DNA from: Eledone cirrhosa
Taxonomy: Eukaryota
Length of the DNA stretch: 64,000 bases
Direction: 5' to 3'
Assembly: GCA_964016885.1 (NCBI GenBank)
Contig: OZ024752.1
Coordinates: 32,488,001-32,552,000 of the forward strand
Position numbers and translations under genes: made by a program. Shown in pieces: positions 195-64,000 of the stretch. Numbering within the stretch: the stretch's first letter is position 1; every line of letters begins with the position of its first letter. The notes under the pieces were generated by a model, which saw only the letters and a list, made by a program, of their open reading frames with translations, was not told the origin of the DNA and made no database searches.

Positions 195-519
<325 letters not shown>

Positions 520-16067: not shown

Positions 16068-16077
16068 TATATATATA

Positions 16078-16362
16078 TTATTAGAAATGTAAGCTATCGC
16101 CGTATTTTTTACTTAGCCTGATAGTGGGGTTAAGAACCCTCGGAGAAATGGAAAAAGATGAGTATTGGCGTACATGGGAGTCGAACCCACATCTTTGGTT
16201 ATCCGGACCACTGTGCTTCCATTTACATGTGGGTTCGACTCCCATGTACGTCAATACTCATCTTTTTCCATTTCTCCGAGGGTTCTTAACCACACTATCA
16301 GGCTAAATAATTACTTTAATTTCTTTAGTCAAAAATACGGTGATAGCTTACATTTCTAATAA
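16078..16362. mobile_element. Palindromic element with a tRNA-like head
   Basis: Inverted arms ttagaaatgtaagctatc.../...gatagcttacatttctaa. Internal T-arm GTGGG-TTCGACT-CCCAT and anticodon-like arm TGGT-ccggata-ACCA on the minus strand. Confidence 0.7.
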
Positions 16363-18031
16363 TTTCAGACCAACTCGCTGTTTCGAAAATATTCTTACTA
16401 TATATATCGGAGGAAATGTGGTAAGGAACCAGATGGGCCATAACGCACCAGAGTACTCAATACTTAGGGTAGTAGAGTGGGTAATAGGAAAAAGTATGAC
16501 CCCGACGGCAGATTCAAGCCGTTTCGACGGCTATTTCTGGACTTAAATATCCGTCCAAACGGCTTGAGCTCTGCCGTCGGGGTCATACTTTTTCCTATAT
16601 ATATACTGTATATATATATATATAAGTAGTTTCACAACAGTTAGTTCACCATACAGAGAACAAATGCTTCATCTTCAGTGGATCTTCAGCTCGGTCTGAG
16701 TGGAGTTGTACAGAAAAGGAAAATCAACCGTATGAATACGCATGCGCAGAAACGGTCACTTCTCCTGGGCGATTTAATCCCACGGTCAAACGGTGTAAAG
16801 GACAGGACATAACTGCGAATGTCCGGAATAAATTATTCGAGTTGATCAGAATATTAGAATGTTGAAGTTATTCAATCTGGAGCTTTGTAATTAAGCAAGA
16901 GGTGTTTCCAGACGTGTGGACACCGTGAAAAAAGCTCATGCCTTGAATTATATATATATATATATATATAACGATAAAGTTTCGTTTATACGTGTCTATT
17001 TTTTTGGTGTATCGACGCGTTTCGTAGAGGATTGGTTCAAAGTCAGCCATGGCAGTTATGCATTATTTTTAGCAGGTCGAGGCACCACGTAGTGACTGTT
17101 GTTGACTTGTAGTATGTATTGCTTTCATTCTAACCATATGCCCGTACGTAGTATCGGAGCTGTGATCTCTCAATTCGGAGAAGTAGCAGCTCTACCAGAG
17201 CGACTCTCCTATCTGCGAGCTACTCACTATCGAGTAACGTTACTCCAAAGAGACTTCGGAGGAAACCCATTTCAATTTATTCCTGAGACATTCTAACCAC
17301 ATGTCCGTTGTATCGGAGCTGTGATCTCTCAATTCAGAGAAGTAGTAGCTAGTTGACTGTTTAATATAGGGAGCTGGAATGAACCAGCCACTAAATAGAA
17401 AACAACGTCAAGCTTTATGTGACCGAGATCAAATTGTTGTCTATTGAAATTTTAGTTAATTCCCTCCCATAATCTTTTTATTTTATTTTTGGTAAACCTA
17501 ACATCTGTAGGTCAGATGTAAATTGAATGAAACACTTGGAAACATTTTTCATTAATAAATTCTTTTCAATGACAAAATGTATTATTATTTTACATTACAA
17601 GACTTCATTTATTTTTTCAACTTAATTAATTTCATTTACGATCTCTTTGAAGTGACACATGAGAAAAACTTTTCATTATTTCTGTATTATATCACACATT
17701 CATAATATAAATATCAATGGAATGATATCGGGTTCATTTTTTTAGATTTTTTTAATAGTTTGACACATAATTTACTCCCGCTGCTATTCCTCTCTCTCAT
17801 TTATCTCTTCTATCTATTTATCTCTCTCTCAATCTATATATTTATCTATCTCTACCTATCTCTATCCCCTCTATCTATCTATTTCTCTATCAATGTATCT
17901 ATTTATCGATCTCCATCTCTCTAGCTATCTATCCATATATCTATCGATCTCTATAAAGGAGTATATGTTCAGTCAATGTAATCAATGAGTTACATAACGA
18001 CACGTTTAGCGACGTTATGTCCATTAGCATA

Positions 18032-22331: not shown

Positions 22332-23605
22332 TAATGGTTTCTTCTTTTGGCACAAGGCCAGCAATAAACCAGTGCATGACTGGTACTTTATTTTATCGAC
22401 CCAGTAAGGATGAAAGGCAAAGTTAACCTCGACGGGATTTGAACTCAGAATGACAAGGGCCGTAACTCTATGCGTCAAAGCATGGCGTCCGATCCACTAT
22501 TATATGGAATAATAATGGTTTCTTATATAGGCACAAGGCTAGCAATTTGGGGGAGGGGAAAGTCGATTAAATTGACCCCAGTGCGTGACTGGTACTTTAT
22601 TTTAGCTCTGGCCTGATGAACATCTGGGTTCGAGACAGAATTTAGCCTTTTAGAGATAGTCCAGAAGTTTATAGTAGTGTGTCTAACTATGGCCTTTGTT
22701 TGGCATGTTACGCTATGTTAGTATTTATCTATTCTGTGTAAAGACTGTTTTCATGATCTGATATGTCTCTCGGACTGAGTTCAAATCCCGCCGAAGTTGA
22801 ATTTGCCTTTCATCCTTCCGATGTCGATATAATAAAGTATCAGTTACGTACTGGGGTAGTCTATGTAATTGTCTTCCCGGCGTGCATATACGAAGAAAAT
22901 AAAATAATAATGTCTTTTACATTTCATTAAAATCTAACATTGAACTTATAGATTGTTGTTATACACTAAAGGGTGGTACGAAAGTCTTGTCCTCTCCCCC
23001 ACCCCCTTGTCACATGGTGGATTGGCAGTATCGGTAGAGGTGCTTTGCAGCATAGTTACGTCCCTTTACGGACTGAGGTCAAATCCCGCCGAGGTTAACT
23101 TTGCCTTTCATCCATACGGGGTCGATAAAATAAAGTACCAGTAATGTACTGGATAATTGCTGGCCTGGTGCCAAAAGTAGAAACAATTATTTTTTGTTTT
23201 AATAATATAATATATATCATTAATTTGGATTGGCAGTATTGGTAGAGGGTCGGGCGCCATGCTTTGAAGCATAGAGTTACTTCCCTTTATGATCTGAGTT
23301 CAAATCCCGCCGAGGTTAACTTTGCCTTTCATCCTTACGGGATCGATAAAATAAAGTACCAGTAATGCACTGGGATAATTGCTGGCCTGGTGCCAAAAGT
23401 AGAAACAATTAATTATAAGTGGATTGGCAGTATCGGTAGAGGGTCGGGCGCCATGCTTTGAAGCATAGAATTACCTCCCCTTATGATCTGAGTTCAAATC
23501 CCGCCGAGGTTAACTTTGCCTTTCATCCTTACGAGGTCGATGAAATAAAGTACCAGTAATGCACTGGGATAATTGCTGGCCTTGTGCCAAAAATAGAAAC
23601 AATTA
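22332..23605. mobile_element. SINE cluster (two minus-strand and four plus-strand copies or fragments)
   Basis: 22332-22495 (-), 22512-22602 (-), 22772-22860, 23016-23190, 23227-23412 and 23419-23605 (+). Confidence 0.9.
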
Positions 23606-23644
23606 ATTATAATATATAATAATAATAATATAATTTTCTATTTC

Positions 23645-26184: not shown

Positions 26185-26334
26185 AATTTAAAACATAGTG
26201 AAATTTTGAAAAATCTCCTCAAGAAAGGCAAAAGTTTAACGGGCAAAAAAGAAAATATATATATATATGTGTCTAGGGTGGGTAAAATTCCAGAGATCCA
26301 TGGACGAGTTCTCTCCAGCGGTCTCTGTCCCTCT

Positions 26335-26700
26335 GGCATCAACATATGTTAACCTCGGTCTTCCTCTTCCAGTGTGTCCATGCAGGGGCTCCCACAGGAG
26401 CACTGAGTGCAGCATCAACTCTGAATGTCGGTGAGCATGTCCAGCTAACCTCAGTCTCCTCTGTGTCACTTTTGAGCTGCCTTTCGGGCGGCTCCCGTAC
26501 AGCTCTGAGTTTTTCATCCTCAGTGTATACTGATTAATGTTCAGAGCCATCCTCAGCATTCTCGAGTAACACCCATCCACCATCTGAGTGAGTTTCTTGG
26601 TCAGTGTCCAAGTCTCAGACCCGTACAGCAGCACAGACTCCACTACAGCAACGAAGAGGCGGATCTTCAGGTCTTTACGAAGGTCCGACTTCCACACCGA

Positions 26701-27254: not shown

Positions 27255-27590
27255 TAGTATATGGGGATAGAGTCAGGACCGCGACGGCTGAGCTCCGGCC
27301 GTTTCGACAGCTAGATCTAAGTGTCGAGAACTCTGGTGCGTTATGGTCCACCTAGTATCTTACCACACTTTCTTTGTTATATATATATATATATAACGAA
27401 GGAGGTGTGGTAAGGAACCAGGTGGACCATAACGCACCAGAGTACTCAATACTTAGGGTAGTAGAGTGGGTAATAGTAAAATGTATGACCCCGACGGCAG
27501 AGCTCAAGCCGTTTCGACGGTTATTTCTGGAGTCCAGAAATAGCCGTTGAAACGGCTTGAGCTCTGCTGTCGGGGTCATACATTTTACTA

Positions 27591-27666
<76 letters not shown>

Positions 27667-32945: not shown

Positions 32946-33443
32946 CCTCTCCACCTTCACTCTCATCTCCTCCCCTTTTTTCATCCTTTCCACCCCCCCC
33001 CCCCTCCCTAAATAAAATATTTTTTCCTCGTACATATTTTTCCCTTCGTTAATTTTAAAATTCTTTTAATTTATACATTATCTTCCAACGGTTTTCAACC
33101 TCTCTATGTAAAACAATATATCTTCTCTCAGTTATAAAAACTATCTCTTTCTCTCTATCACCCATCTCTCCCTCTCCACCTTCACTCTCATCTCCTCCCC
33201 TTTTTCATCCTTTCCACCCCCCCCTCCCCTCTCTAAATAAAATATTTTTCCCAATATCACACATCAATCTAAAACTACTTTTCATATGTTGATTTAAAAC
33301 TGCACTATCCACAAGTGTTTTTTAGCCTTCATATCATGTCCTCCTGTTTTATCTGATGAAAACACAAATATTATTGCATGATGATGTTTGTTTTTGAAAT
33401 GCGCATAATAAAATACATGGAACTCCTTTAACCATCTTTTGAT

Positions 33444-34394: not shown

Positions 34395-34628
34395 GGTGGA
34401 TTGGCAGAATCGGTAGAGGGTCGGACGCCATGCTAGGGCGGTGAATTGGCAGAATCGGTAGAGGGTCGGACGCCATGCTTTCCAGCATAGTTACGTCCCT
34501 TTACGATCTGAGTTCAAATCCCGCCGAGGTTGACTTTGCCTTTCATCCTTACGGGGTCGATAAAATAAAAGTACCAGTAATGCACTGGATAATTGCTGGC
34601 CTTGTGCCTAAAGTAGAAACAATTATTA
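34395..34628 (+). mobile_element. SINE with a duplicated 5' head, inserted into the family C fold-back
   Basis: TSD attatagataacgagg on both sides; the head ggcagaatcggtagagggtcggacgccatgct occurs twice. Confidence 0.9.
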
Positions 34629-34671
34629 TAGATAACGAGGAATCAGTAATGCATCGAAACACAATTTATTA

Positions 34672-34763
34672 ACATATTACATGTGTTTCTCCGACGATCA
34701 GCTCAAGGCAGGATTTATTATAAATCGAACCTGACTCTGCATTCGGAAGGTCCTCAAATATGT
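34672..34763 (-). ncRNA. Extended-stem-II hammerhead, family C (second copy), within palindrome 34625-34860
   Basis: ACATAT-tTGAGGA-cct-TCCGA-atgcagag-TCAGgttc-GATTTAT(a)ATAAATC-..-gagCTGA-tcg-TCGGA-GAAA-CAcaTG-TA-ATATGT. Confidence 0.65.
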
Positions 34764-34916
34764 GTATAGACCCTGCATTGAGCTGATCGTCGGAGAAGCA
34801 TATGTAATATGTTAATAAATTGTGTTTTTATGCATCACTGATTCCTTGTTATCTATAATATATATATATATATACTCTTTTACCTGTTCCAGCCATGCTG
34901 GGGCACCACCCTTGAG

Positions 34917-35643: not shown

Positions 35644-35675
35644 AAAGAATAGAGGTGTAACACACAAGTTATTAT

Positions 35676-36066
35676 ATATTGGTAAACGGAATAGAAAATG
35701 CTGACAAATTGTTCACAGTTGAAAAATGGTTTAATTAGGAATAAAAGAGTATTAGTAATTGTATGGGTTAGTATTCAGTTGTGGTTTTAAGTTTTTAAGT
35801 TTTTACCGGTTGCGCATTTCTAAATGCTTTTCAAAAATAATTTTGAGATAGAGTGTCCGTGTTGTTTGCTCAGATCAGAGCAAACAACACGGACACTCTA
35901 TCTCAAAATTATTTTTGAAAAGCATTTAGAAATGCGCAACCGGTAAAAACTTAAAAACTTAAAACCACAACTGAATACTAACCCATACAATCACTAATAC
36001 TCTTTTATTCCTAATTAAACCATTTTTCAACTGTGAACAATTTGTCAGCATTTTCTATTCCGTTTA

Positions 36067-36072
<6 letters not shown>
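35676..36072. repeat. Near-perfect palindrome with ~195-bp arms, between (TA)n tracts
   Basis: attggtaaacggaatagaaaatgctgac...gttgtttgctc-agatca-gagcaaacaac...gtcagcattttctattccgtttaccaat. Confidence 0.93.
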
Positions 36073-36106
<34 letters not shown>

Positions 36107-36152
36107 TATTGAAGTTTGCTTGAAGCATTGTGGAACAATAAGTAAATATCTT

Positions 36153-36572
36153 TAAGTCGTTTGGAAGCCTCGACAATGCAAATGGGTAAATCTCCGGGTA
36201 ACAAGGTCCGGTGGTGGAGGGAGAGATGTAAGTGGGTGTACGTTGGGATGCGTGGTGTGTATAAGATGTGTGAGATGTGTAGAATGGAGGGAAGAGTAAA
36301 AGGATAAAAATAAAAATAACAACACAAGAGAGAGTGTTACCTTGGGAGAGATATAATAGTTCCTATATATTTCGGATTCACAAGGTAACACTCTCTCTTG
36401 TGTTGTTATTTTTATTTTTATCCTTTTACTCTTCCCTCCATTCTACACATCTCACACATCTTATACACACCACGCATCCCAACGTACACCCACTTACATC
36501 TCTCTCTCCACCACCGGACCTTGTTACCCGGAGATTTACCCATTTGCATTGTCGAGGCTTCCAAACGACTTA
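36153..36572. repeat. Near-perfect palindrome with ~190-bp arms and a ~36-bp spacer, between (TA)n tracts
   Basis: aagtcgtttggaagcctcgac...gtgttaccttg / caaggtaacac...gtcgaggcttccaaacgactt. Confidence 0.93.
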
Positions 36573-36583
36573 TATATATATAT

Positions 36584-36987: not shown

Positions 36988-37032
36988 GAATACCTGATGA
37001 TATCACTGGATTCATACGGAACCCGGTCATTG
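36988..37032 (+). ncRNA. Degenerate hammerhead motif
   Basis: AAT-ac-CTGATGA-TAT(..)ATA-c-GgAA-cCCGG-TC-ATT; GAAA is mutated to GGAA; aataaa follows downstream. Confidence 0.4.
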
Positions 37033-44022: not shown

Positions 44023-44268
44023 TCGAACTTTGGGCTGATCAATAGCGAAACACGCGTCACCAACCAATAAACGTAATGAAGGAACCAGGCGTAACATTAT
44101 ATATATATATATATAATGAAATAAAACAAGGGCGAGTGGTTACGCCTGGTTCCTTCATTACGTTTATTGGTTGGTGACGCGTGTTTCGCTATTGATCAGC
44201 CCAAAGTTCGATCTGTATCTATCTAGCCTGACTCTGTAATCAATGACTCGTCGGAGGACCTCTTTGGT

Positions 44269-45029: not shown

Positions 45030-45770
45030 ACAGTATCTGAAGAGGGTCGGGCGTCATGCTTTGCAGCAAAGAGTTACGTCCCTTTATGGTCTGAGTTCAA
45101 ATCCCGCCGAGGTTAACTTTACCTTTCATCCTTACGGGATCGATAAAATAAAGTACCAGTAATACACTGGGGTAATTTCTGACCTTGTGCCAAAAGTAGA
45201 AACAATTATTAAATATTTCCTCTAGCAGAATCGGTAGAGCGTTGGACAATATGCTTTGCGGTCTAGAGTTATGGCCCTTGGCGGTCTGAGTTCAAATTCC
45301 GCCGAGGTTAACTTTGCCTTTCATGCTTACGGGGTTGATAAAATAAAGTACCAGTAATGCACTGGGATAATTGCTGGCCTTGTGCCAAAAGTAGAAACAA
45401 TTATTACTAGGTGGATTGGCAGTATCGGTAGAGTGTCGGACGACAGGCTTTTCAGCATAGAGTTATGGCCCTTTATGGTCTGAGTTCAAATCTCGCCGAG
45501 GTTAACTTTGCCTTTCATCCTTACGGGGTCGATAAAATAAAGTACCAGTAATGCACTGGAGTAATTGCTGGTCTTGTGCCAAAGGTAGAAACCATTATTA
45601 CTAGGAGTGGTTGATTAGAAACAGCTATTTACTACCTGAGTTCTAATTCCGCCATGGTGAACTTCGCATTTCATGACTCCAGAGTCGCTAAAATAAAGTA
45701 CCAGTTAAGTACTGGGACCAATATAATGGATAACACCACCACTCACGCCCAAATTCCGGGCCTTATTCTA
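45030..45770 (+). mobile_element. Four tandemly arranged SINE copies or fragments
   Basis: 45030-45210, 45225-45405, 45410-45598 and 45635-45770. Confidence 0.9.
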
Positions 45771-52689: not shown

Positions 52690-53990
52690 GTGGTGGTGGT
52701 GGTGGTGGTGGTGTAAGTGATGGTTGATGTGATGGTGGTGGTGACGATGTAAGTGGTGGTTGATGTGGTGGTGGTGGTGACGGTGTAAGTGATGGTTGAT
52801 GTGGTGGTGGTGGTGACGGTGTAAGTGATGGTTGATGTGGTGGTGGTGGTGTAAGTGATGGTTGCTGTGGTGGTGGTGATGGTGGTGTAAGTGATGGTTG
52901 AAGTGGTGGTGATGATGGTGGTGTAAGTGATGGTTGATGTGGTGGTGGTGGTGGTGGTGTAAGTGATGGTTGATGTGGTGGTGGTGGTGGTGGTGTAAGT
53001 GATGCTTGAAGTGGTGGTGGTGGTGGCGGTGTAAGTGATGGTTGATGTGGTGGTGGTGGTGACGGTGTAAGTGGTGGTTGATGTGGTGGTGGTGGTGACG
53101 GTGTAAGTGATGGTTGATGTGGTGGTGGTGGTGACGGTGTAAGTGATGGTTGATGTGGTGGTGGTGGTGTAAGTGATGGTTGCTGTGGTGGTGGTGGTGG
53201 TGGTGTAAGTGATGGTTGAAGTGGTGGTGATGATGGTGGTGTAAGTGATGGTTGATGTGGTGGTGGTGGTGGTGGTGTAAGTGATGGTTGAAGTGGTGGT
53301 GATGATGGTGGTGTAAGTGATGGTTGATGTGGTGGTGGTGGTGGTGGTGGTGTAAGTGATGGTTGATGTGGTGGTGGTGGTGGTGGTGGTGGTGGTGTAA
53401 GTGATGCTTGAAGTGGTGGTGGTGGTGGCGGTGTAAGTGATGGTTGATGTGGTGGTGGTGGTGATGGTGTAAGTGATGGTTGAAGTGGTGGTGGTGGTGG
53501 TGGTGGTGTAAGTGATGGTTGATGTGGTGGTGGTGGTGTAAGTGATGGTTGATGTGGTGGTGGTGGTGGTGGTGGTGGTGTAAGTGATGGTTGATGTGGT
53601 GGTGGTGGTGGTGGTGGTGGTGGTGACGGTGTAAGTGATGGTTGATGTGGTGGTGGTGCTGGTGGTGTAAGTGATGGTTGAAGTGGTGGTGGTGGTGGTG
53701 TAAGTGATGGTTGATGTGGTGGTGGTGGTGGTGGTGTAAGTGATGGTTGATGTGGTGGTGGTGGTGGTGGTGGTGTAAGTGATGGTTGATGTGGTGGTGG
53801 TGGTGTAAGTGATGGTTGATGTGGTGGTAGTGGTGGTGGTGTAAGTGATGGTTGATGTGGTGGTGGTGGTGATGGTGTAAGTGATGGTTGAAGTGGTGGT
53901 GGGGGTGGTGGTGTAAGTGATGGTTGAAGTGGTGGTGGTGATGGAAGTGATGGTTGAAGTGGTGGTGGTGGTGTAAGTGTGATGGTTGCA
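52690..53990. repeat. ~30-36 bp G/T-rich minisatellite
   Basis: ggtgtaagtgatggttgatgt(ggt)n units. Confidence 0.93.
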
Positions 53991-54334
53991 GTGGTGAAGG
54001 AAGTGATGGTGATGGTGTTGAAATGGTGGGGGGGGGGATGATGGTGGTGGTGTTGAAGTGGTGGGGAGGGGGGTTGAAGTGGGGGGGGGGGGGGGGTTAT
54101 GGTGGTGGTGTTGAAGTGGTGGTGGTAAACTAATATCTTGTATTTATATTTATTGTTGTTGTTGTTGTTGTCTTGTTACCAGAACCTGATAGAGTGTACC
54201 AACTGTTGAATAACAATAAATACTGACTTCAAACAACTAAATATGCTCATTATTGATGTTGACAATTAACATGTGGGTGGTGGTGGTGATGGTGATGGTG
54301 ATGGTAGTGGTGGTGGTGGTGGTGGTGATGGTAG

Positions 54335-57300
54335 TGGTGTTGGGGGTGGTGCTGGTGGCGGAGGAGGTTGTGGTGGTGTTGGGGGTGGTGCTGGTGGCGG
54401 AGTAGGAGGTTGTGGTGGTGTTGGGGGTGGTGGTGGTGGCGGAGGAGGTTGTGGTGGTGTTGGGGGTGGTGGTGGTGGCGGAGGAGGTTGTGGTGGTGTT
54501 GGGGGTGGTGCTGGTGGAGTAGGAGGTTGTGGTGGTGTTGGGGGTGGTGCTGGTGGAGTAGGAGGTTGTGGTGGTGTTGGGGGTGGTGGTGGTGGCGGAG
54601 GAGGTTGTGGTGGTGTTGGGGGTGGTGCTGGTGGCGGAGGAGGTTGTGGTGGTGTTGGGGGTGGTGCTGGTGGAGTAGGAGGTTGTGGTGGTGTTGGGGG
54701 TGGTGGTGGTGGCGGAGGAGGTTGTGGTGGTGTTGGGGGTGGTGCTGGTGGCGGAGGAGGTTGTGGTGGTGTTGGGGGTGGTGCTGGTGGAGTAGGAGGT
54801 TGTGGTGGTGTTGGGGGTGGTGGTGGTGGCGGAGGAGGTTGTGGTGGTGTTGGGGGTGGTGGTGGTGGCGGAGGAGGTTGTGGTGGTGTTGGGGGTGGTG
54901 GTGGTGGCGGAGGAGGTTGTGGTGGTGTTGGGGGTGGTGCTGGTGGAGTAGGAGGTTGTGGTGGTGTTGGGGGTGGTGGTGGTGGTGGAGGAGGTTGTGG
55001 TGGTGTTGGGGGTGGTGGTGGTGGCGGAGGAGGTTGTGGTGGTGTTGGGGGTGGTGGTGGTGGCGGAGGAGGTTGTGGTGGTGTTGGGGGTGGTGCTGGT
55101 GGAGTAGGAGGTTGTGGTGGTGTTGGGGGTGGTGCTGGTGGCGGAGGAGGTTGTGGTGGTGTTGGGGGTGGTGCTGGTGGAGTAGGAGGTTGTGGTGGTG
55201 TTGGGGGTGGTGGTGGTGGTGGTGGAGGAGGTTGTGGTGGTGTTGGGGGTGGTGGTGGTGGCGGAGGAGGTTGTGGTGGTGTTGGGGGTGGTGGTGGTGG
55301 CGGAGGAGGTTGTGGTGGTGTTGGGGGTGGTGCTGGTGGAGTAGGAGGTTGTGGTGGTGTTGGGGGTGGTGGTGGTGGCGGAGGAGGTTGTGGTGGTGTT
55401 GGGGGTGGTGGTGGTGGTGGCGGAGGAGGTTGTGGTGGTGTTGGGGGTGGTGCTGGTGGCGGAGGAGGTTGTGGTGGTGTTGGGGGTGGTGCTGGTGGAG
55501 TAGGAGGTTGTGGTGGTGTTGGGGGTGGTGCTGGTGGCGGAGGAGGTTGTGGTGGTGTTGGGGGTGGTGCTGGTGGAGTAGGAGGTTGTGGTGGTGTTGG
55601 GGGTGGTGGTGGTGGTGGTGGAGGAGGTTGTGGTGGTGTTGGGGGTGGTGGTGGTGGCGGAGGAGGTTGTGGTGGTGTTGGGGGTGGTGGTGGTGGAGTA
55701 GGAGGTTGTGGTGGTGTTGGGGGTGGTGGTGGTGGCGGAGGAGGTTGTGGTGGTGTTGGGGGTGGTGGTGGTGGCGGAGGAGGTTGTGGTGGTGTTGGGG
55801 GTGGTGCTGGTGGAGTAGGAGGTTGTGGTGGTGTTGGGGGTGGTGCTGGTGGAGTAGAAGGTTGTGGTGGTGTTGGGGGTGGTGGTGGTGGAGTAGGAGG
55901 TTGTGGTGGTGTTGGGGGTGGTGGTGGTGGCGGAGGAGGTTGTGGTGGTGTTGGGGGTGGTGCTGGTGGCGGAGGAGGTTGTGGTGGTGTTGGGGGTGGT
56001 GCTGGTGGAGTAGGAGGTTGTGGTGGTGTTGGGGGTGGTGGTGGTGGCGGAGGAGGTTGTGGTGGTGTTGGGGGTGGTGCTGGTGGCGGAGGAGGTTGTG
56101 GTGGTGTTGGGGGTGGTGCTGGTGGAGTAGGAGGTTGTGGTGGTGTTGGGGGTGGTGGTGGTGGCGGAGGAGGTTGTGGTGGTGTTGGGGGTGGTGGTGG
56201 TGGCGGAGGAGGTTGTGGTGGTGTTGGGGGTGGTGGTGGTGGCGGAGGAGGTTGTGGTGGTGTTGGGGGTGGTGCTGGTGGAGTAGGAGGTTGTGGTGGT
56301 GTTGGGGGTGGTGGTGGTGGTGGAGGAGGTTGTGGTGGTGTTGGGGGTGGTGGTGGTGGCGGAGGAGGTTGTGGTGGTGTTGGGGGTGGTGGTGGTGGCG
56401 GAGGAGGTTGTGGTGGTGTTGGGGGTGGTGCTGGTGGAGTAGGAGGTTGTGGTGGTGTTGGGGGTGGTGCTGGTGGCGGAGGAGGTTGTGGTGGTGTTGG
56501 GGGTGGTGCTGGTGGAGTAGGAGGTTGTGGTGGTGTTGGGGGTGGTGGTGGTGGTGGTGGAGGAGGTTGTGGTGGTGTTGGGGGTGGTGGTGGTGGCGGA
56601 GGAGGTTGTGGTGGTGTTGGGGGTGGTGGTGGTGGCGGAGGAGGTTGTGGTGGTGTTGGGGGTGGTGCTGGTGGAGTAGGAGGTTGTGGTGGTGTTGGGG
56701 GTGGTGGTGGTGGCGGAGGAGGTTGTGGTGGTGTTGGGGGGGGGGGGGGCGGAGGAGGTGGGGGGGGGGAGGTTGTGGTGGTGTTGGGGGTGGTGCTGGT
56801 GGCGGAGGAGGTTGTGGTGGTGTTGGGGGTGGTGCTGGTGGAGTAGGAGGTTGTGGTGGTGTTGGGGGTGGTGCTGGTGGCGGAGGAGGTTGTGGTGGTG
56901 TTGGGGGTGGTGCTGGTGGAGTAGGAGGTTGTGGTGGTGTTGGGGGTGGTGGTGGTGGTGGTGGAGGAGGTTGTGGTGGTGTTGGGGGTGGTGGTGGTGG
57001 CGGAGGAGGTTGTGGTGGTGTTGGGGGTGGTGGTGGTGGCGGAGGAGGTTGTGGTGGTGTTGGGGGTGGTGCTGGTGGAGTAGGAGGTTGTGGTGGTGTT
57101 GGGGGTGGTGGTGGTGGCGGAGGAGGTTGTGGTGGTGTTGGGGGTGGTGCTGGTGGCGGAGGAGGTTGTGGTGGTGTTGGGGGTGGTGCTGGTGGCGGAG
57201 GAGGTTGTGGTGGTGTTGGGGGTGGTGCTGGTGGCGGAGGAGGTTGTGGTGGTGTTGGGGGTGGTGGTGGTGGCGGAGGAGGTTATGGTGGTGTTGGGGG

Positions 57301-58380
57301 TGGTGGTGGTGGCGGAGGAGGTTGTGGTGGTGTTGGGGGTGGTGCTGGTGGAGTAGGAGGTTGTGGTGGTGTTGGGGGTGGAGTAGGAGGTTGTGGTGGT
57401 GGTGGCGGAGGAGGTTGTGGTGGTGTTGGGGGTGGTGGTGGTGGCGGAGGAGGTTGTGGTGGTGTTGGGGGTGGTGCTGGTGGCGGAGGAGGTTGTGGTG
57501 GTGTTGGGGGTGGTGCTGGTGGCGGAGGAGGTTGTGGTGGTGTTGGGGGTGGTGGCGGAGGAGGTTGTGGTGGTGTTGGAGGCGGTGCTGGTGGAGTAGG
57601 AGGTTGTGGTAGTGTTGGGGGGGAGGTTGGGGGGGGGGGGTAGGAGGTTGGGGGGGGGGTTAGGGGGGGTGCTAGTGGGGGAAGAGGTTGTGGTGGTGTT
57701 GGGGGTGGAGTAGGAGGTTGTGGTGGTGTTGGGGGTGGTGGTGGTGGCGGAGGAGGTTGTGATGGTGTTGGGGGTGGTGGTGGTGGCGGAGGAGGTTGTG
57801 GTGGTGTTGGGGGTGGTGCTGGTGGCGGAGGAGGTTGTGGTGGTGTTGGGGGTGGTGCTGGTGGCGGAGGAGGTTGTGGTGGTGTTGGGGGTGGTGGTGG
57901 TGGCGGAGGAGGTTGTGGTGGTGTTGGAGGCGGTGCTGGTGGAGTAGGAGGTTGTGGTGGTGTTGGGGGGGGGGGGGGGGGGTTGCTGGTGGCGGAGGGG
58001 GGGTTGGGGGGGTTGGGGGGGTGCTGGTGGCGGAGGAGGTTGTGGTGGTGTTGGTGGAGTAGGAGGTTGGGGGGGAGGTTGGGGGGGGGGAGGTTGTGGT
58101 GGTGTTGGGGGTGGTGCTGGTGGCGGAGGAGGTTGTGGTGGTGTTGGGGGTGGTGCTGGTGGCGGAGGAGGTTGTGGTGGTGTTGGGGGTGGTGCTGGTG
58201 GCGGAGGAGGTTGTGGTGGTGTTGGGGGTGGTGGTGGTGGCGGAGGAGGTTGTGGTGGTGTTGGAGGCGGTGCTGGTGGAGTAGGAGGTTGTGGTGGTGT
58301 TGGGGGGGAGGGGAGGGGGGGGGGCGGAGGAGGTTGTGGTGGTGTTGGTGGAGTAGGAGGGGGGGGGGGGGGGGGGGCTG
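54335..58380. repeat. 39-bp G-rich satellite (about 100 units)
   Basis: ggtggtgttgggggtggtg(c/g)tggtgg(cgg/agt)aggaggttgt repeated. Confidence 0.95.
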
Positions 58381-59119
58381 GTCGTCGGCGTTGTCGTCGT
58401 CATGATGGTTTTGCTGGTGGAGGTGGTGGAGATGATGGTGATTACTTGGGTGGAGGTGGTGATGGTGATGTGACAATGATTTTAATGGAGGTGGTGATGG
58501 TGGTGGTAGTGGTGGGGGGGTAGTGATAGTGGTGGTGGTGGTGATGGTAGTGATGGTGGTGGTGGTGGTGGTGGCGGTGGTGGCGGTGATGGTGGTGGTG
58601 GTGGTGTGACAATGATTTTAATGGAGGTGCTGATGGTGGTGGTTGTGGTGGTAGTGTTGGGGGGGGGTAGTGATGGTGGTGGTAATGATGGTGGTGGTGG
58701 TGATGGTGGTGGTGATGGTGGTGGTGGTGGTGGTGGTGGTGATGGTGGTGGTGGTGATGGTGGTGGTGGCGGTAGTGATGGTGGTGGTGGCGGTGGAGGT
58801 GGTAGTGGTGGTGGCGGTGGTGGTGGTGGTAGTGGTGGTGGCGGTGGTAGTGGTGGTGGTGGTGGTGGTGGTGGTGGTGGTGGTGGTGGTGGCGGTGGTG
58901 GCGGTAGTGATGGTGGTGGTGGCGGTGGTGGTGGAGGTGGAGGTGGTGGTAGTGATGGTGGTGGGGTGGTGGTAGTGGTGGTGGTTGAGGTGGTGGTGGT
59001 GGTGGTAAGGATCAACAACTATAGTGTTATTGGTGAAATGTGATGATAGTGAGAAGGAAATATATGTTGGTAAGGTAAAAACGAATGTTTTGCACAATAT
59101 GGTGTTGTTATGGTGACAG

Positions 59120-60943: not shown

Positions 60944-61824
60944 GTTTCTACTTTGGGCACAAGGCCAGCAAATACCCCCAGTGCATTACTGGTACTTTAT
61001 TTTATCGACCCCGTAAGGATGAACGGCAAAGTCGACCTCGGCGGGATTTGAACTCAGAACACAAAGGGCCATAACTATGCAGCAAAGCATAGTGTCTGAC
61101 GCTCTACCGATCCTGTTGTCAAACCACCGCACTTAGAGCGAGTTGTTTTCTGTTGTACTTCTAACAGACAACATAATGGTTTTTGATTTAAGCACAAGGC
61201 CAGCAATTTGAAGAGGGGAAAGTCGATTAAATCGACCTCAGTGCATTACTGCTACTTTATTTTATCGACCCCGTAAGGATGAAAGGCAAAGTTAACCTCG
61301 ACGGGATTTGAGCTCAGTCTATAAAGGGGCGTAACTATGCTGCAAAGCATGGCGTTTGATCACCGCCCTTCTGACAACGTAATGCCAATGAATGACGACT
61401 GGACTCAGAGGGAGTTTTCAATAGTCGCTGAAACTGTTAGAAATAGTAGCTAAATCGTCCTTGAATCATACCCTAGAATCTTAAATAACCATTTCATTTT
61501 GTCTTCTTTTTCTTTTTTTTTTTTTTCTTCTTTGAATATTATGAAATGTGATCATAAACAAGTGTGTGAGTGAATGAATGAATGAGTGTGTGAATGAATG
61601 AGTGTGTGAATGAATGAGTGTGTGAATGAATGAGTGCGTGAATGAATGAGTGCGTGAATGAATGAGTGCGTGAATGAATGAGTGCGTGAATGAATGAGCG
61701 TGTGAATGAGTAAGTGAGTATAACTCTCTCTCTCTCATATCTATCTCTCTCTCTATATATATATATAATTGTTTCTACTTTAGGCACAAGGCCAGCAATA
61801 ACCCAGTTCATTACTGGTACTTTA
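60944..61824 (-). mobile_element. SINE copies at 60944-61130, 61175-61365 and 61768-61824
   Basis: Consensus match on the minus strand. Confidence 0.88.
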
Positions 61825-61972
61825 TATATATAATGTTATATAGTAAGGTGTATTATTGGTTGTGTCCATACGGTCCAATAAATTGTTGTTACCAATATTA
61901 AGTTCTCCACGCTTTTGTATATCTCCAATTCCATTTATGGGAACAGCTAGATGATGTAAAACGGAGTATTTG

Positions 61973-62287
61973 TATCAAAATAAAGATCCGAAGGCATGGT
62001 ATAAATTTCCAATCATTTTAATCACGACACATGTTTCAATAAGAGATAGATCGATCGTGTAGCCATGATCGATTATCACTGATCTCGTCAGGTGAAAATG
62101 AATTGTCTTCAAATCCTTGATATGAGGGAGAAAATTAATGATGTTCACTCACAGAGTTTAGTCCCTCATTTTCACCTGACGAGATCAGTGATAATCGATC
62201 ATGGCTACACGATCGATCTATCATTTATTGAAACGTGTCGTGATTAAAATGATTGGAAATTTATACCATGCCTTCGGATCTTTATTT

Positions 62288-62293
<6 letters not shown>
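61973..62293. mobile_element. Fold-back element with ~128-bp arms, each containing a complete hammerhead
   Basis: Arms at 61973-62101 and 62166-62293; (TA)n follows. Confidence 0.85.
62173..62242 (+). ncRNA. Type-I hammerhead with a long stem II (mirror on the minus strand at 62023-62094)
   Basis: CAC-CTGACGA-GAT-cag-TGATA-ATCGATC-(atggctacac)-GATCGAT-c-TATCA-ttt-ATT-GAAA-CgtG-TC-GTG; GUC site. Confidence 0.8.
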
Positions 62294-62323
<30 letters not shown>

Positions 62324-62650
62324 CCGTATCTACTTACTCGCAGGACTCTTTAACTTGCTGTGTAACAGTTTAACTTTCTCATGGTTTTGTATCTATTTTC
62401 TGCTATGTTCTTGTGAACCATTCCTTATTGTCAAACTTTTTATAGCCTAAGATATTAGTTACTACTTCAACATATTTTCTTGACCAAATGCCACCTGTTG
62501 ATAACTCAGGTATCCTCTTCGTAGTTTTACCAACTTTCCTATCTCTGAAAGCTTTCATGCGTTATGTCCTTGAGCAAGACACTTTATTTCACGTTGCTCC
62601 TTCTACCTGGAGTTGCGACCGATAGAGAGTAGTAGCAATTGTAAAGACCA

Positions 62651-62701
<51 letters not shown>

Positions 62702-62741: not shown

Positions 62742-62800
62742 ATTCTATTATATATATTTCAAGGGTACCAAAACTTTGGTACGCTCTCATCAGATAAAAT
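62742..62800 (-). ncRNA. Type-I hammerhead
   Basis: ATTTTAT-CTGATGA-GAG-c-GTACCAAA(gt)TTTGGTAC-c-CTT-GAAA-TATATA-TA-ATAGAAT: 7-bp stem I, palindromic stem III, aataaa directly after. Confidence 0.75.
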
Positions 62801-63779
62801 ACAAAGTTTGTTTTATAAATATTGACATAACCAGGAAGAAGATCTTAACGGTTCAAGTTTTTCCTGGATAGTAAAGGAAAGAAGGGAAAGAGAAGAAAAG
62901 TCAAATATTTCAAATTATTAAGATGAGTATGCAAATGAGGTTGAGGTATAGAGCTGGAAAAAAAAGAAAAAAAACGTTATTTTTAGACGCTAGGTAGATT
63001 TAAATAATTATTAGGATATATGTATGTGTAGGAAGAAGAAAGAGAAGGAAAGAAGAGCTTGTATTTACGTTAATTTAAAAAGAATTAACAGTTTGTAGAA
63101 ATGGTGGAATATGATTCCGGAATTTAAAAAAAATTATTTAGCTATATTATGAATTATAATATTATATATATAATTAGATTATATTATGAGTTATAATATT
63201 ATATATATAATTAGATTATATTATGAGTTATAATATTATATATATAATTAGATTATATGAAGAATTATGGTTGTACTTATTACATTACAACAGGTTGTGA
63301 GTATATAAATATCTATATAGATTAAAAATCGTGCAAGTATAAGTATTATTAGTGATTTTTTTAGAAATAAACTACAATTATTAATTGTTTATATTTCTCA
63401 TATGAGTTACGAAAGATGTTGATTTTCCATTTTACATTTTAAAAAATTAAGAAAAAGACGTAGTTCAAGTTGTTAGAGGACAACAATTCGTAGATTCAAA
63501 TATTTTGTTCCAACATTGAAAATGTTTTCAGAATATTATTAATTTAGCGAAGTTATATAGTTTATCATACAAGTTATCGTGTCTATGTTTGCTCAATTGT
63601 AAAGGAAAAGATAACCCTAATCTTATTTGCTAACCATTAAATTGGATGAAGGATTTACTCAGAAAGTATGAAGAGAAAATTATATATTATTTTGTGTGAG
63701 CTTATTTTTTTTTCAAGGATGAGAGTTTCAATTACATATTATTTACGTCGAAAGATGTGTGAAAAGTTTGAAGATTAAA

Positions 63780-64000
63780 AAGAGGAAAAAAGTATTATGC
63801 ATTTCGAAGAAGTATCGTAAAGAGGATATCTTTCAGAATGTCAATTAAAGTTTATCAATCTACATCTAAAAAATAGATTAAGAAGAGTATCATTAGGAAA
63901 AGGATATCAAATGGTAAAAATACTAAATTTAAGAGGAAGATCATTTTTAAAATGTTTAATTTTTAAAGAATAACTCAGTAAATCAGTTTAAAGGTGTATA
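63780..64000 (-). pseudogene. Possible highly decayed Penelope-like RT remnant upstream of the 62742-62800 hammerhead
   Basis: Scattered minus-strand peptides in different frames (NDLPLKFS, FLDV, HSERYPLYDTS) fall in the order expected for a PLE RT C-terminus, but the match is weak. Confidence 0.25.

Follow-up and report, generated by a model that had tools for sequence, protein, structure and literature searches.

Two head-to-head, 5′-truncated copies of a probable Penelope-like element form a palindrome with a hammerhead motif on each strand in Eledone cirrhosa

The palindromic locus at 61843-62292 of the window (the whole 64,000-nt stretch of contig OZ024752.1 that was analysed) is very probably one short insertion of an endonuclease-bearing Penelope-like element (PLE), consisting of two head-to-head, 5′-truncated copies. 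From the sequence, it is clear that two 5′-truncated copies of a repeat end are joined head to head through a junction microhomology, that their 3′ ends are unequal, and that (TA)n lies outside them. The arrangement is of an already described kind in animals. The features of the locus, and of a second palindrome in the window, are collected in Table 1.

Table 1. Features of the palindromic locus and position of the second hammerhead palindrome (window coordinates)
Feature	Position	Strand	Details and basis
Second hammerhead palindrome	195..399	.	88-nt arms, 95%; cores at 312 (+) and 281 (-)
(TA)n-like run, left outer end	61823..61842	.	Remnant of microsatellite target; sequence
One-sided 124-nt extension ('tail') of left copy	61843..61966	-	Family sequence, not flank; read depth
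Left arm, pLTR-like end with type-I hammerhead	61967..62101	-	Alignment, descriptor, folding
Left-arm hammerhead		-	Helix I from 62101; core (CUGACGA) 62091-62085; cleavage 3′ of 62026 (N17 of the GUC triplet)
Spacer, family sequence upstream of left hammerhead	62102..62169	-	Read depth, translation
5-nt microhomology at inverted junction	62166..62170	.	Complementary to 62097-62101
Right arm, inverted 5′-truncated copy with type-I hammerhead	62166..62292	+	Core (CUGACGA) 62176-62182; cleavage 3′ of 62239 (N17 of the GUC triplet)
(AT)15.5 microsatellite, right outer end	62290..62320	.	Tandem-repeat finding

Repeat finding in the window resolved the inverted repeat into an inner part (arms 62029-62101/62166-62238, 96% identity) and an outer part (arms 61967-62030/62235-62298, 97% identity), and blastn of the arms gave 96.9% over 129 aligned columns. 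The palindrome that a preliminary description had placed at 61973..62293 is therefore real, with arms at 61967-62101 and 62166-62298 that are about 97% alike, and the few substitutions and indels reported between them come down to two adjacent substitutions in stem II and one 2-nt indel in loop III. The 341-nt palindrome stretch folds at -228.7 kcal/mol, against -73.1 ± 5.6 kcal/mol in 100 shuffles (z = -27.8). The element itself reaches 124 nt further left than the start given in that description, to about 61843; this extension belongs to the left copy only, and the right copy has no counterpart. The 5-nt microhomology coincides with the first bases of the right copy's helix I, and the family homology of the minus-strand copy continues through it to 62169 (a contig of read run X7 covers 62114-62169). 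Around the insertion at 61843-62292, no target-site duplication could be distinguished from the flanking (TA)n runs; such a duplication is an optional PLE feature that microsatellites hide. A cut-off SINE-like fragment (61775-61825), matching 28 other places in the window over most of its length, adjoins the left (TA)n run.

To follow the family beyond the assembly, we used four of the 13 listed public read runs, mapped onto 61780-62660 at 85% likeness; most mapped reads were 90-95% alike. Summed depth in run X11 was 172-769 over 61840-62109, including 172-468 over the extension at 61843-61966, and about 100 over 62110-62169. Contigs of run X1 span 61840-62169 and pieces from X7 lie at 61840-61986, 61895-62057 and 62114-62169, so that the extension is present in contigs of both. 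The reads thus show extension, left arm and spacer to belong to one interspersed multi-copy repeat family, in which the left hammerhead is preceded by the spacer. Among 40 of the 74 variant rows, variation in the catalytic core was found at N7 only (62087 and 62180). N7 sits in a CpG and is polymorphic within the family, and its variation may be partly CpG decay; for these reasons, the C at N7 in both palindromes was dropped as a candidate for editing. Read ends of X11 piled up at 61927/61930, 62004, 62104 and 62133, all of them on AATT sites. They are thus restriction ends of a reduced-representation library and not element ends, and were rejected as element boundaries, together with the 39-nt tail that one of them had implied.

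Membership of the PLEs rests on four structural hallmarks and on copy number, and not on an ORF. An inverted 5′-truncated copy, a tail of 30-40 bp that is often at one end only, and (TA)n targets are given as PLE features in PMC8557442; in its supplementary table, Penelope-13_HM combines hammerheads on both strands with an inverted 5′-truncated copy. Inverted pLTRs that overlap a direct pLTR, junction palindromes and self-priming are described in PMC3846280. PMC4209133 reports minimal hammerheads in pairs, on opposite strands and separated by 100-700 bp, as truncated PLEs, to which it also relates scattered motifs. At our locus we found a type-I hammerhead in the terminal repeat, an inverted 5′-truncated copy joined at the 5′ end, a (TA)n target and a multi-copy family; a one-sided tail is also present, but is 124 nt long (65 nt at 195-399) against the published 30-40 bp. 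This known inverted-pLTR form of PLE, with its asymmetric extension and (TA)n ends, had been missed in the preliminary description, which therefore took a by-product of transposition for a possible regulatory device.

The minus-strand translation of the spacer contains G-L-N with six further codons up to the stop, some 40 nt upstream of helix I, and the GIY-YIG domain of Naiad_Obim ends in P-L-G-L-N (PMC8557442 supplement). With G[LM]N-then-stop seen in 0.6% of 20000 shuffles, a comparison made post hoc, there is a weak hint from translation that the spacer may be the end of an endonuclease ORF followed by 3′ UTR. Searches for a PLE RT or GIY-YIG domain with 21 and 15 translations gave nothing relevant in Pfam; one frame of the extension had 0 hits among protein homologues, and its other two frames nothing relevant in Pfam. 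None of six short motifs (0/6) was seen in the available PLE consensus set of PMC8557442, where line breaks could hide matches, and a 25-nt arm pattern had 0 matches in metagenome and prokaryote genome contigs. A gapped hammerhead pattern returned 11 metagenome loci and one viral locus; none is homologous to the element, and most fall in coding sequence and resemble chance matches. One, in an AT-rich plant-metagenome contig (L002, 91-144, minus strand), is a plausible minimal type-I hammerhead with a G-U pair closing stem II, and Pfam gave no hit upstream of it.

The same geometry had been said to recur at 195-400. A palindrome with hammerheads is indeed present there, but it belongs to another family: it shares no match above 7 nt with 61967-62298 and carries a GUA triplet. 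With a near-perfect central hairpin, a 65-nt extension on the left only (about 130-194) and (TA)n at both ends, it repeats the anatomy of 61843-62292 in an unrelated family. The helix III of its motif at 312 is nearly identical to that of Hydra-1_oBim in the supplementary table of PMC8557442.

Two such palindromes in 64 kb, together with the high copy number of the arm, could also be the mark of a palindromic element that is non-autonomous, resembles a MITE or a retrozyme, is mobile as one unit and employs its two hammerheads in the manner of two-polarity ribozyme circles. One X1 contig that joins 61968 to 62166 points the same way, as a single-contig hint of another head-to-head copy with the same breakpoint, the letters between being not known. 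We nevertheless consider such an element highly improbable. The ends of the locus are asymmetric by 124 nt of family sequence, where a MITE or palindromic DNA transposon would have symmetric TIRs bounded by a target-site duplication; the spacer is ordinary upstream family sequence that continues the left arm; the two hammerhead palindromes are unrelated in sequence; and the remaining hammerheads in the window are solitary. There is no head-to-tail tandem of units, each with a hammerhead, by which retrozymes are defined (bioRxiv 10.64898/2026.07.22.740005), and perfect pairing of the arms would silence both ribozymes.

An assembly or long-read fold-back artefact, mirroring a single hammerhead-bearing repeat end, has very little probability. 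Depth was 0 over the flank at 62290-62529 in all four runs, so that the junction with unique flank is covered by none of them, and no strand-changing joint was seen among 15 of the 19 joints in mapped reads; the inverted junction accordingly rests on the assembly sequence and not on reads. Inverted PLE structures are moreover known to trouble assemblies (PMC8557442), and frame shifts in a 39-bp array elsewhere in the window (54277-59006) could be read errors. However, the arms differ by two substitutions and a 2-nt indel, and the right arm holds a non-family state: 62223 and 62224 are two derived letters, at which 13 of 13 X11 reads carry the left-arm state. The junction microhomology and the stop of the right arm at (AT)n also speak against an artefact. 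When the window was compared with itself, ten short-looped palindromes of 100 bp or more emerged, covering 2468 bases (3.9%); five shuffles gave none. Seven of the ten adjoin (TA)4 at one end, a regularity not to be expected of technical chimeras, and in six of these seven an extra 33-134 nt separate the other end from (TA)4.

Each arm, read outward, presents helix I, CUGACGA, a long stem II, GAAA, a very short helix III and GUC, with the conserved core CUGANGA/GAAA/NUH intact at all conserved positions; the two cores lie on opposite strands, 85 nt apart. The earlier claim of complete hammerheads on both strands thus holds for the catalytic core of each arm, but not for helix III, which is minimal, with 2 bp and a 2-nt loop in the right arm and 3 bp and a 2-nt loop in the left. 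The helix III segment has a self-complementarity of 1.0 in both arms (self-duplex -3.1 and -6.0 kcal/mol), and by these calculations is of the minimal, dimer-dependent type. A relaxed type-I descriptor found eight motifs in the window; 100 block-shuffled windows gave 0.15 on average and 3 at most. The descriptor was tuned after two stricter versions, of which the first found four motifs and the second three, including neither arm of 61967-62298, and it still misses the left arm of the second palindrome, at 281. Rfam gave 0 matches in the window at the gathering score, and no hammerhead family was among its 22 matches to E 10. Five of the eight motifs have (TA)4 37-52 nt downstream, compared with a background of 9% of positions within 60 nt.

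A single minimal PLE hammerhead showed no cleavage, and dimers low cleavage, in PMC4209133, as the review PMC6765202 agrees; in PMC11167929, a PLE hammerhead showed no activity unless protein was present, and insertion in vitro did not require it. Since helix III is minimal here and single motifs were inactive in PMC4209133, a single arm is, by analogy, unlikely to cleave alone. Two hammerheads on opposite strands cannot dimerise in cis.

The preliminary description had proposed that transcription from either side would give one sense hammerhead and its antisense, and that ribozyme folding would then compete with a hairpin of ~128 bp. The geometry is as proposed, but there is hardly a competition: the hairpin wins outright, because the antisense arm is transcribed before the sense arm whichever way the locus is read through, and an open core within the full palindrome comes at a cost of 35.6 (plus) or 35.4 (minus) kcal/mol. 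In an arm taken alone, structures with an open core make up a computed share of 0.0007-0.003, a figure that considers secondary structure only. The folding models indicate that the hammerheads are probably locked in a duplex of about 130 bp and silent in a read-through transcript; a free hammerhead would be expected only in a transcript starting inside the spacer. Such a hairpin would offer a substrate for A-to-I editing or for processing into small RNAs. The preliminary description implied a host-selected RNA switch, with ribozyme and hairpin competing for control of a transcript. Such a switch is scarcely credible, although both cores are intact at every conserved position: the antisense arm is made first and the duplex is favoured by about 35 kcal/mol, even in isolated arms the computed structures rarely have an open core, the opposite-strand ribozymes form no cis dimer, intact cores are expected from a young insertion, and the four mapped runs gave no sign that the locus is conserved.

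For the PLE insertion that we favour, a series of steps can be proposed. The PLE protein would nick an AT-rich or (TA)n target, and reverse transcription would start at a site within the element RNA, not far downstream of the hammerhead, as PMC11167929 and PMC8557442 suggest. The anatomy shows that the first cDNA took in the extension, the hammerhead and 68 nt upstream before it stopped; its last five bases would then have paired with the complementary five at the start of helix I. The inverted copy may then have been made by the cDNA folding back on itself, to which we give slightly better than an even chance, or by annealing to a second cDNA, primed on the opposite strand from a second start site, which we place slightly below even; the two predict the same junction. 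PMC11167929 describes cleavage and extension of both target strands, with two internal RT start sites explaining the tail. The inverted copy comes to its end in (AT)n, 124 nt short of the first copy, and in this reading the hammerheads are passengers of the element's terminal repeat. In both hammerhead palindromes (n = 2), at least one arm has its core no more than about 10-15 nt from the junction, as might be expected if the RNA began close to helix I.

The locus is a clean footprint of PLE insertion chemistry, with its microhomology at the start of helix I and its two different 3′ ends, and it is relevant to whether such insertions arise by fold-back or by two-strand priming. By itself, a single locus matters little, being one more described retroelement junction with ribozymes that are probably silent. 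The density of palindromes in the window, on the other hand, suggests a possible large source of dsRNA in a lineage with heavy A-to-I editing. Exceptionally high dsRNA potential and hyper-editing are reported for octopus in PMC5625713, the available text of which names a palindromic repeat as a cause of hyper-editing for frog only and leaves octopus out of the repeat analysis; among the open-licence papers listed, we found no published link between PLE-type palindromes and cephalopod editing. It is a tentative and rather unlikely idea, drawn from one window, that near-perfect dsRNA in this animal stems mainly from dense head-to-head stumps, made at insertion by many PLE families whether or not they carry hammerheads, and that these stumps explain the dsRNA potential and hyper-editing of octopus.

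Hammerhead cores occur in only two of the ten palindromes. Two others, at 35673-36076 and 36143-36582, are adjacent, with arms of about 200 bp (99% and 95%), no hammerhead cores, (TA)n at the right, and 33 and 41 extra nt before the left (TA)n; they show the one-tail signature of PLEs, possibly of Naiad type. The last 13 nt of the first arm of this pair equal the 3′ end of one PLE consensus in the PMC8557442 supplement, listed there just before Chlamys-1_eDeb, a hint that concerns one of six motifs. Six more palindromes, of 115-287 bp, lie at 16077-16363, 34624-34860, 44023-44211, 16484-16598, 27317-27456 and 27473-27591. One family is represented twice, at 16484-16598 and 27473-27591; each copy follows the same sequence, which is related to 27317-27456 (also 2571-2718), and with that sequence perhaps forms a MITE-like composite; three or four of the ten palindromes in the window may be MITE-like.

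The window is otherwise AT-rich, as in an animal genome, and crowded with microsatellites and copies of a 194-bp SINE-like repeat, which give it an octopus-like look. The SINE-like repeat is found at 23226-23612, 45031-45605 and some 28 scattered places; some copies stand in tandem, and many form nearby inverted pairs, which are another source of dsRNA. Five solitary type-I hammerheads of different families lie at 33353 (+), 36994 (+), 37548 (-), 26177 (-) and 62793 (-). Their helix III is self-complementary, three end in (TA)n within 37-52 nt, and the motifs at 36994 and 37548 point towards each other, with (TA)n at about 37245 between them. Upstream of the hammerhead at 62793, the AT-rich stretch 62800-64000 might be decayed PLE coding sequence, for which neither Pfam nor phmmer gave support; the one match to 63269-64000 among 1.84 billion proteins, a repeat-rich CARD-like protein, was rejected as spurious. 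Minisatellites of 39 bp (54277-59006) and 36 bp (52693-53973) are stop-free in several frames, Pro/Thr/His- or Gly-rich, and the frame shifts in the 39-bp array suggest a non-coding satellite or read errors. An open frame at 26236-26700 on the minus strand looks like the 3′ part of a non-LTR retrotransposon ORF; its match to DUF6451 is weak and falls below the cut-off (E 0.0024-0.012).

Among known systems, the locus most resembles the EN+ PLEs with an inverted pLTR (PMC8557442, including its Fig. 2; PMC3846280; Penelope-13_HM of the Hydra clade), which share its head-to-head 5′-truncated copy, the outward hammerheads on both strands, the one-sided extension, the (TA)n ends and the short overlap at the junction. 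In contrast to these elements, almost no ORF is left here, and the extension is 124 nt instead of 30-40. Since no ORF is tied to the family, it is not assigned to any of the clades Neptune, Hydra, Poseidon and Nematis.

The opposite-strand minimal PLE hammerheads of Schistosoma mansoni (PMC4209133) are similar in their conserved core, their short self-complementary helix III, the placing of motifs on opposite strands and the presence of many families in one genome. Their helix II is 7-8 bp long and closed by the G10.1-C11.1 pair, whereas stem II here has about 16-18 bp with mismatches and a closing G-U or A-U pair, and helix I has about 10 bp with a bulge; the motif is therefore not of their exact minimal form. 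Several Hydra-clade hammerheads in the supplementary table of PMC8557442 are likewise without a G-C pair at 10.1-11.1.

The animal non-LTR retrozymes (bioRxiv 10.64898/2026.07.22.740005) are, like the element described here, non-coding and PLE-derived with a type-I hammerhead, but they are head-to-tail tandems that can dimerise in cis, whereas the present copies are head to head with their ribozymes on opposite strands. Finally, the palindromic Harbinger repeat of Xenopus tropicalis (PMC5625713) is, like our locus, a self-folding repeat of about 200-300 bp that needs no neighbour to form dsRNA. That repeat, however, is a DNA transposon with a palindromic consensus, whereas the palindrome described here appears to have been made at the insertion of a retroelement.
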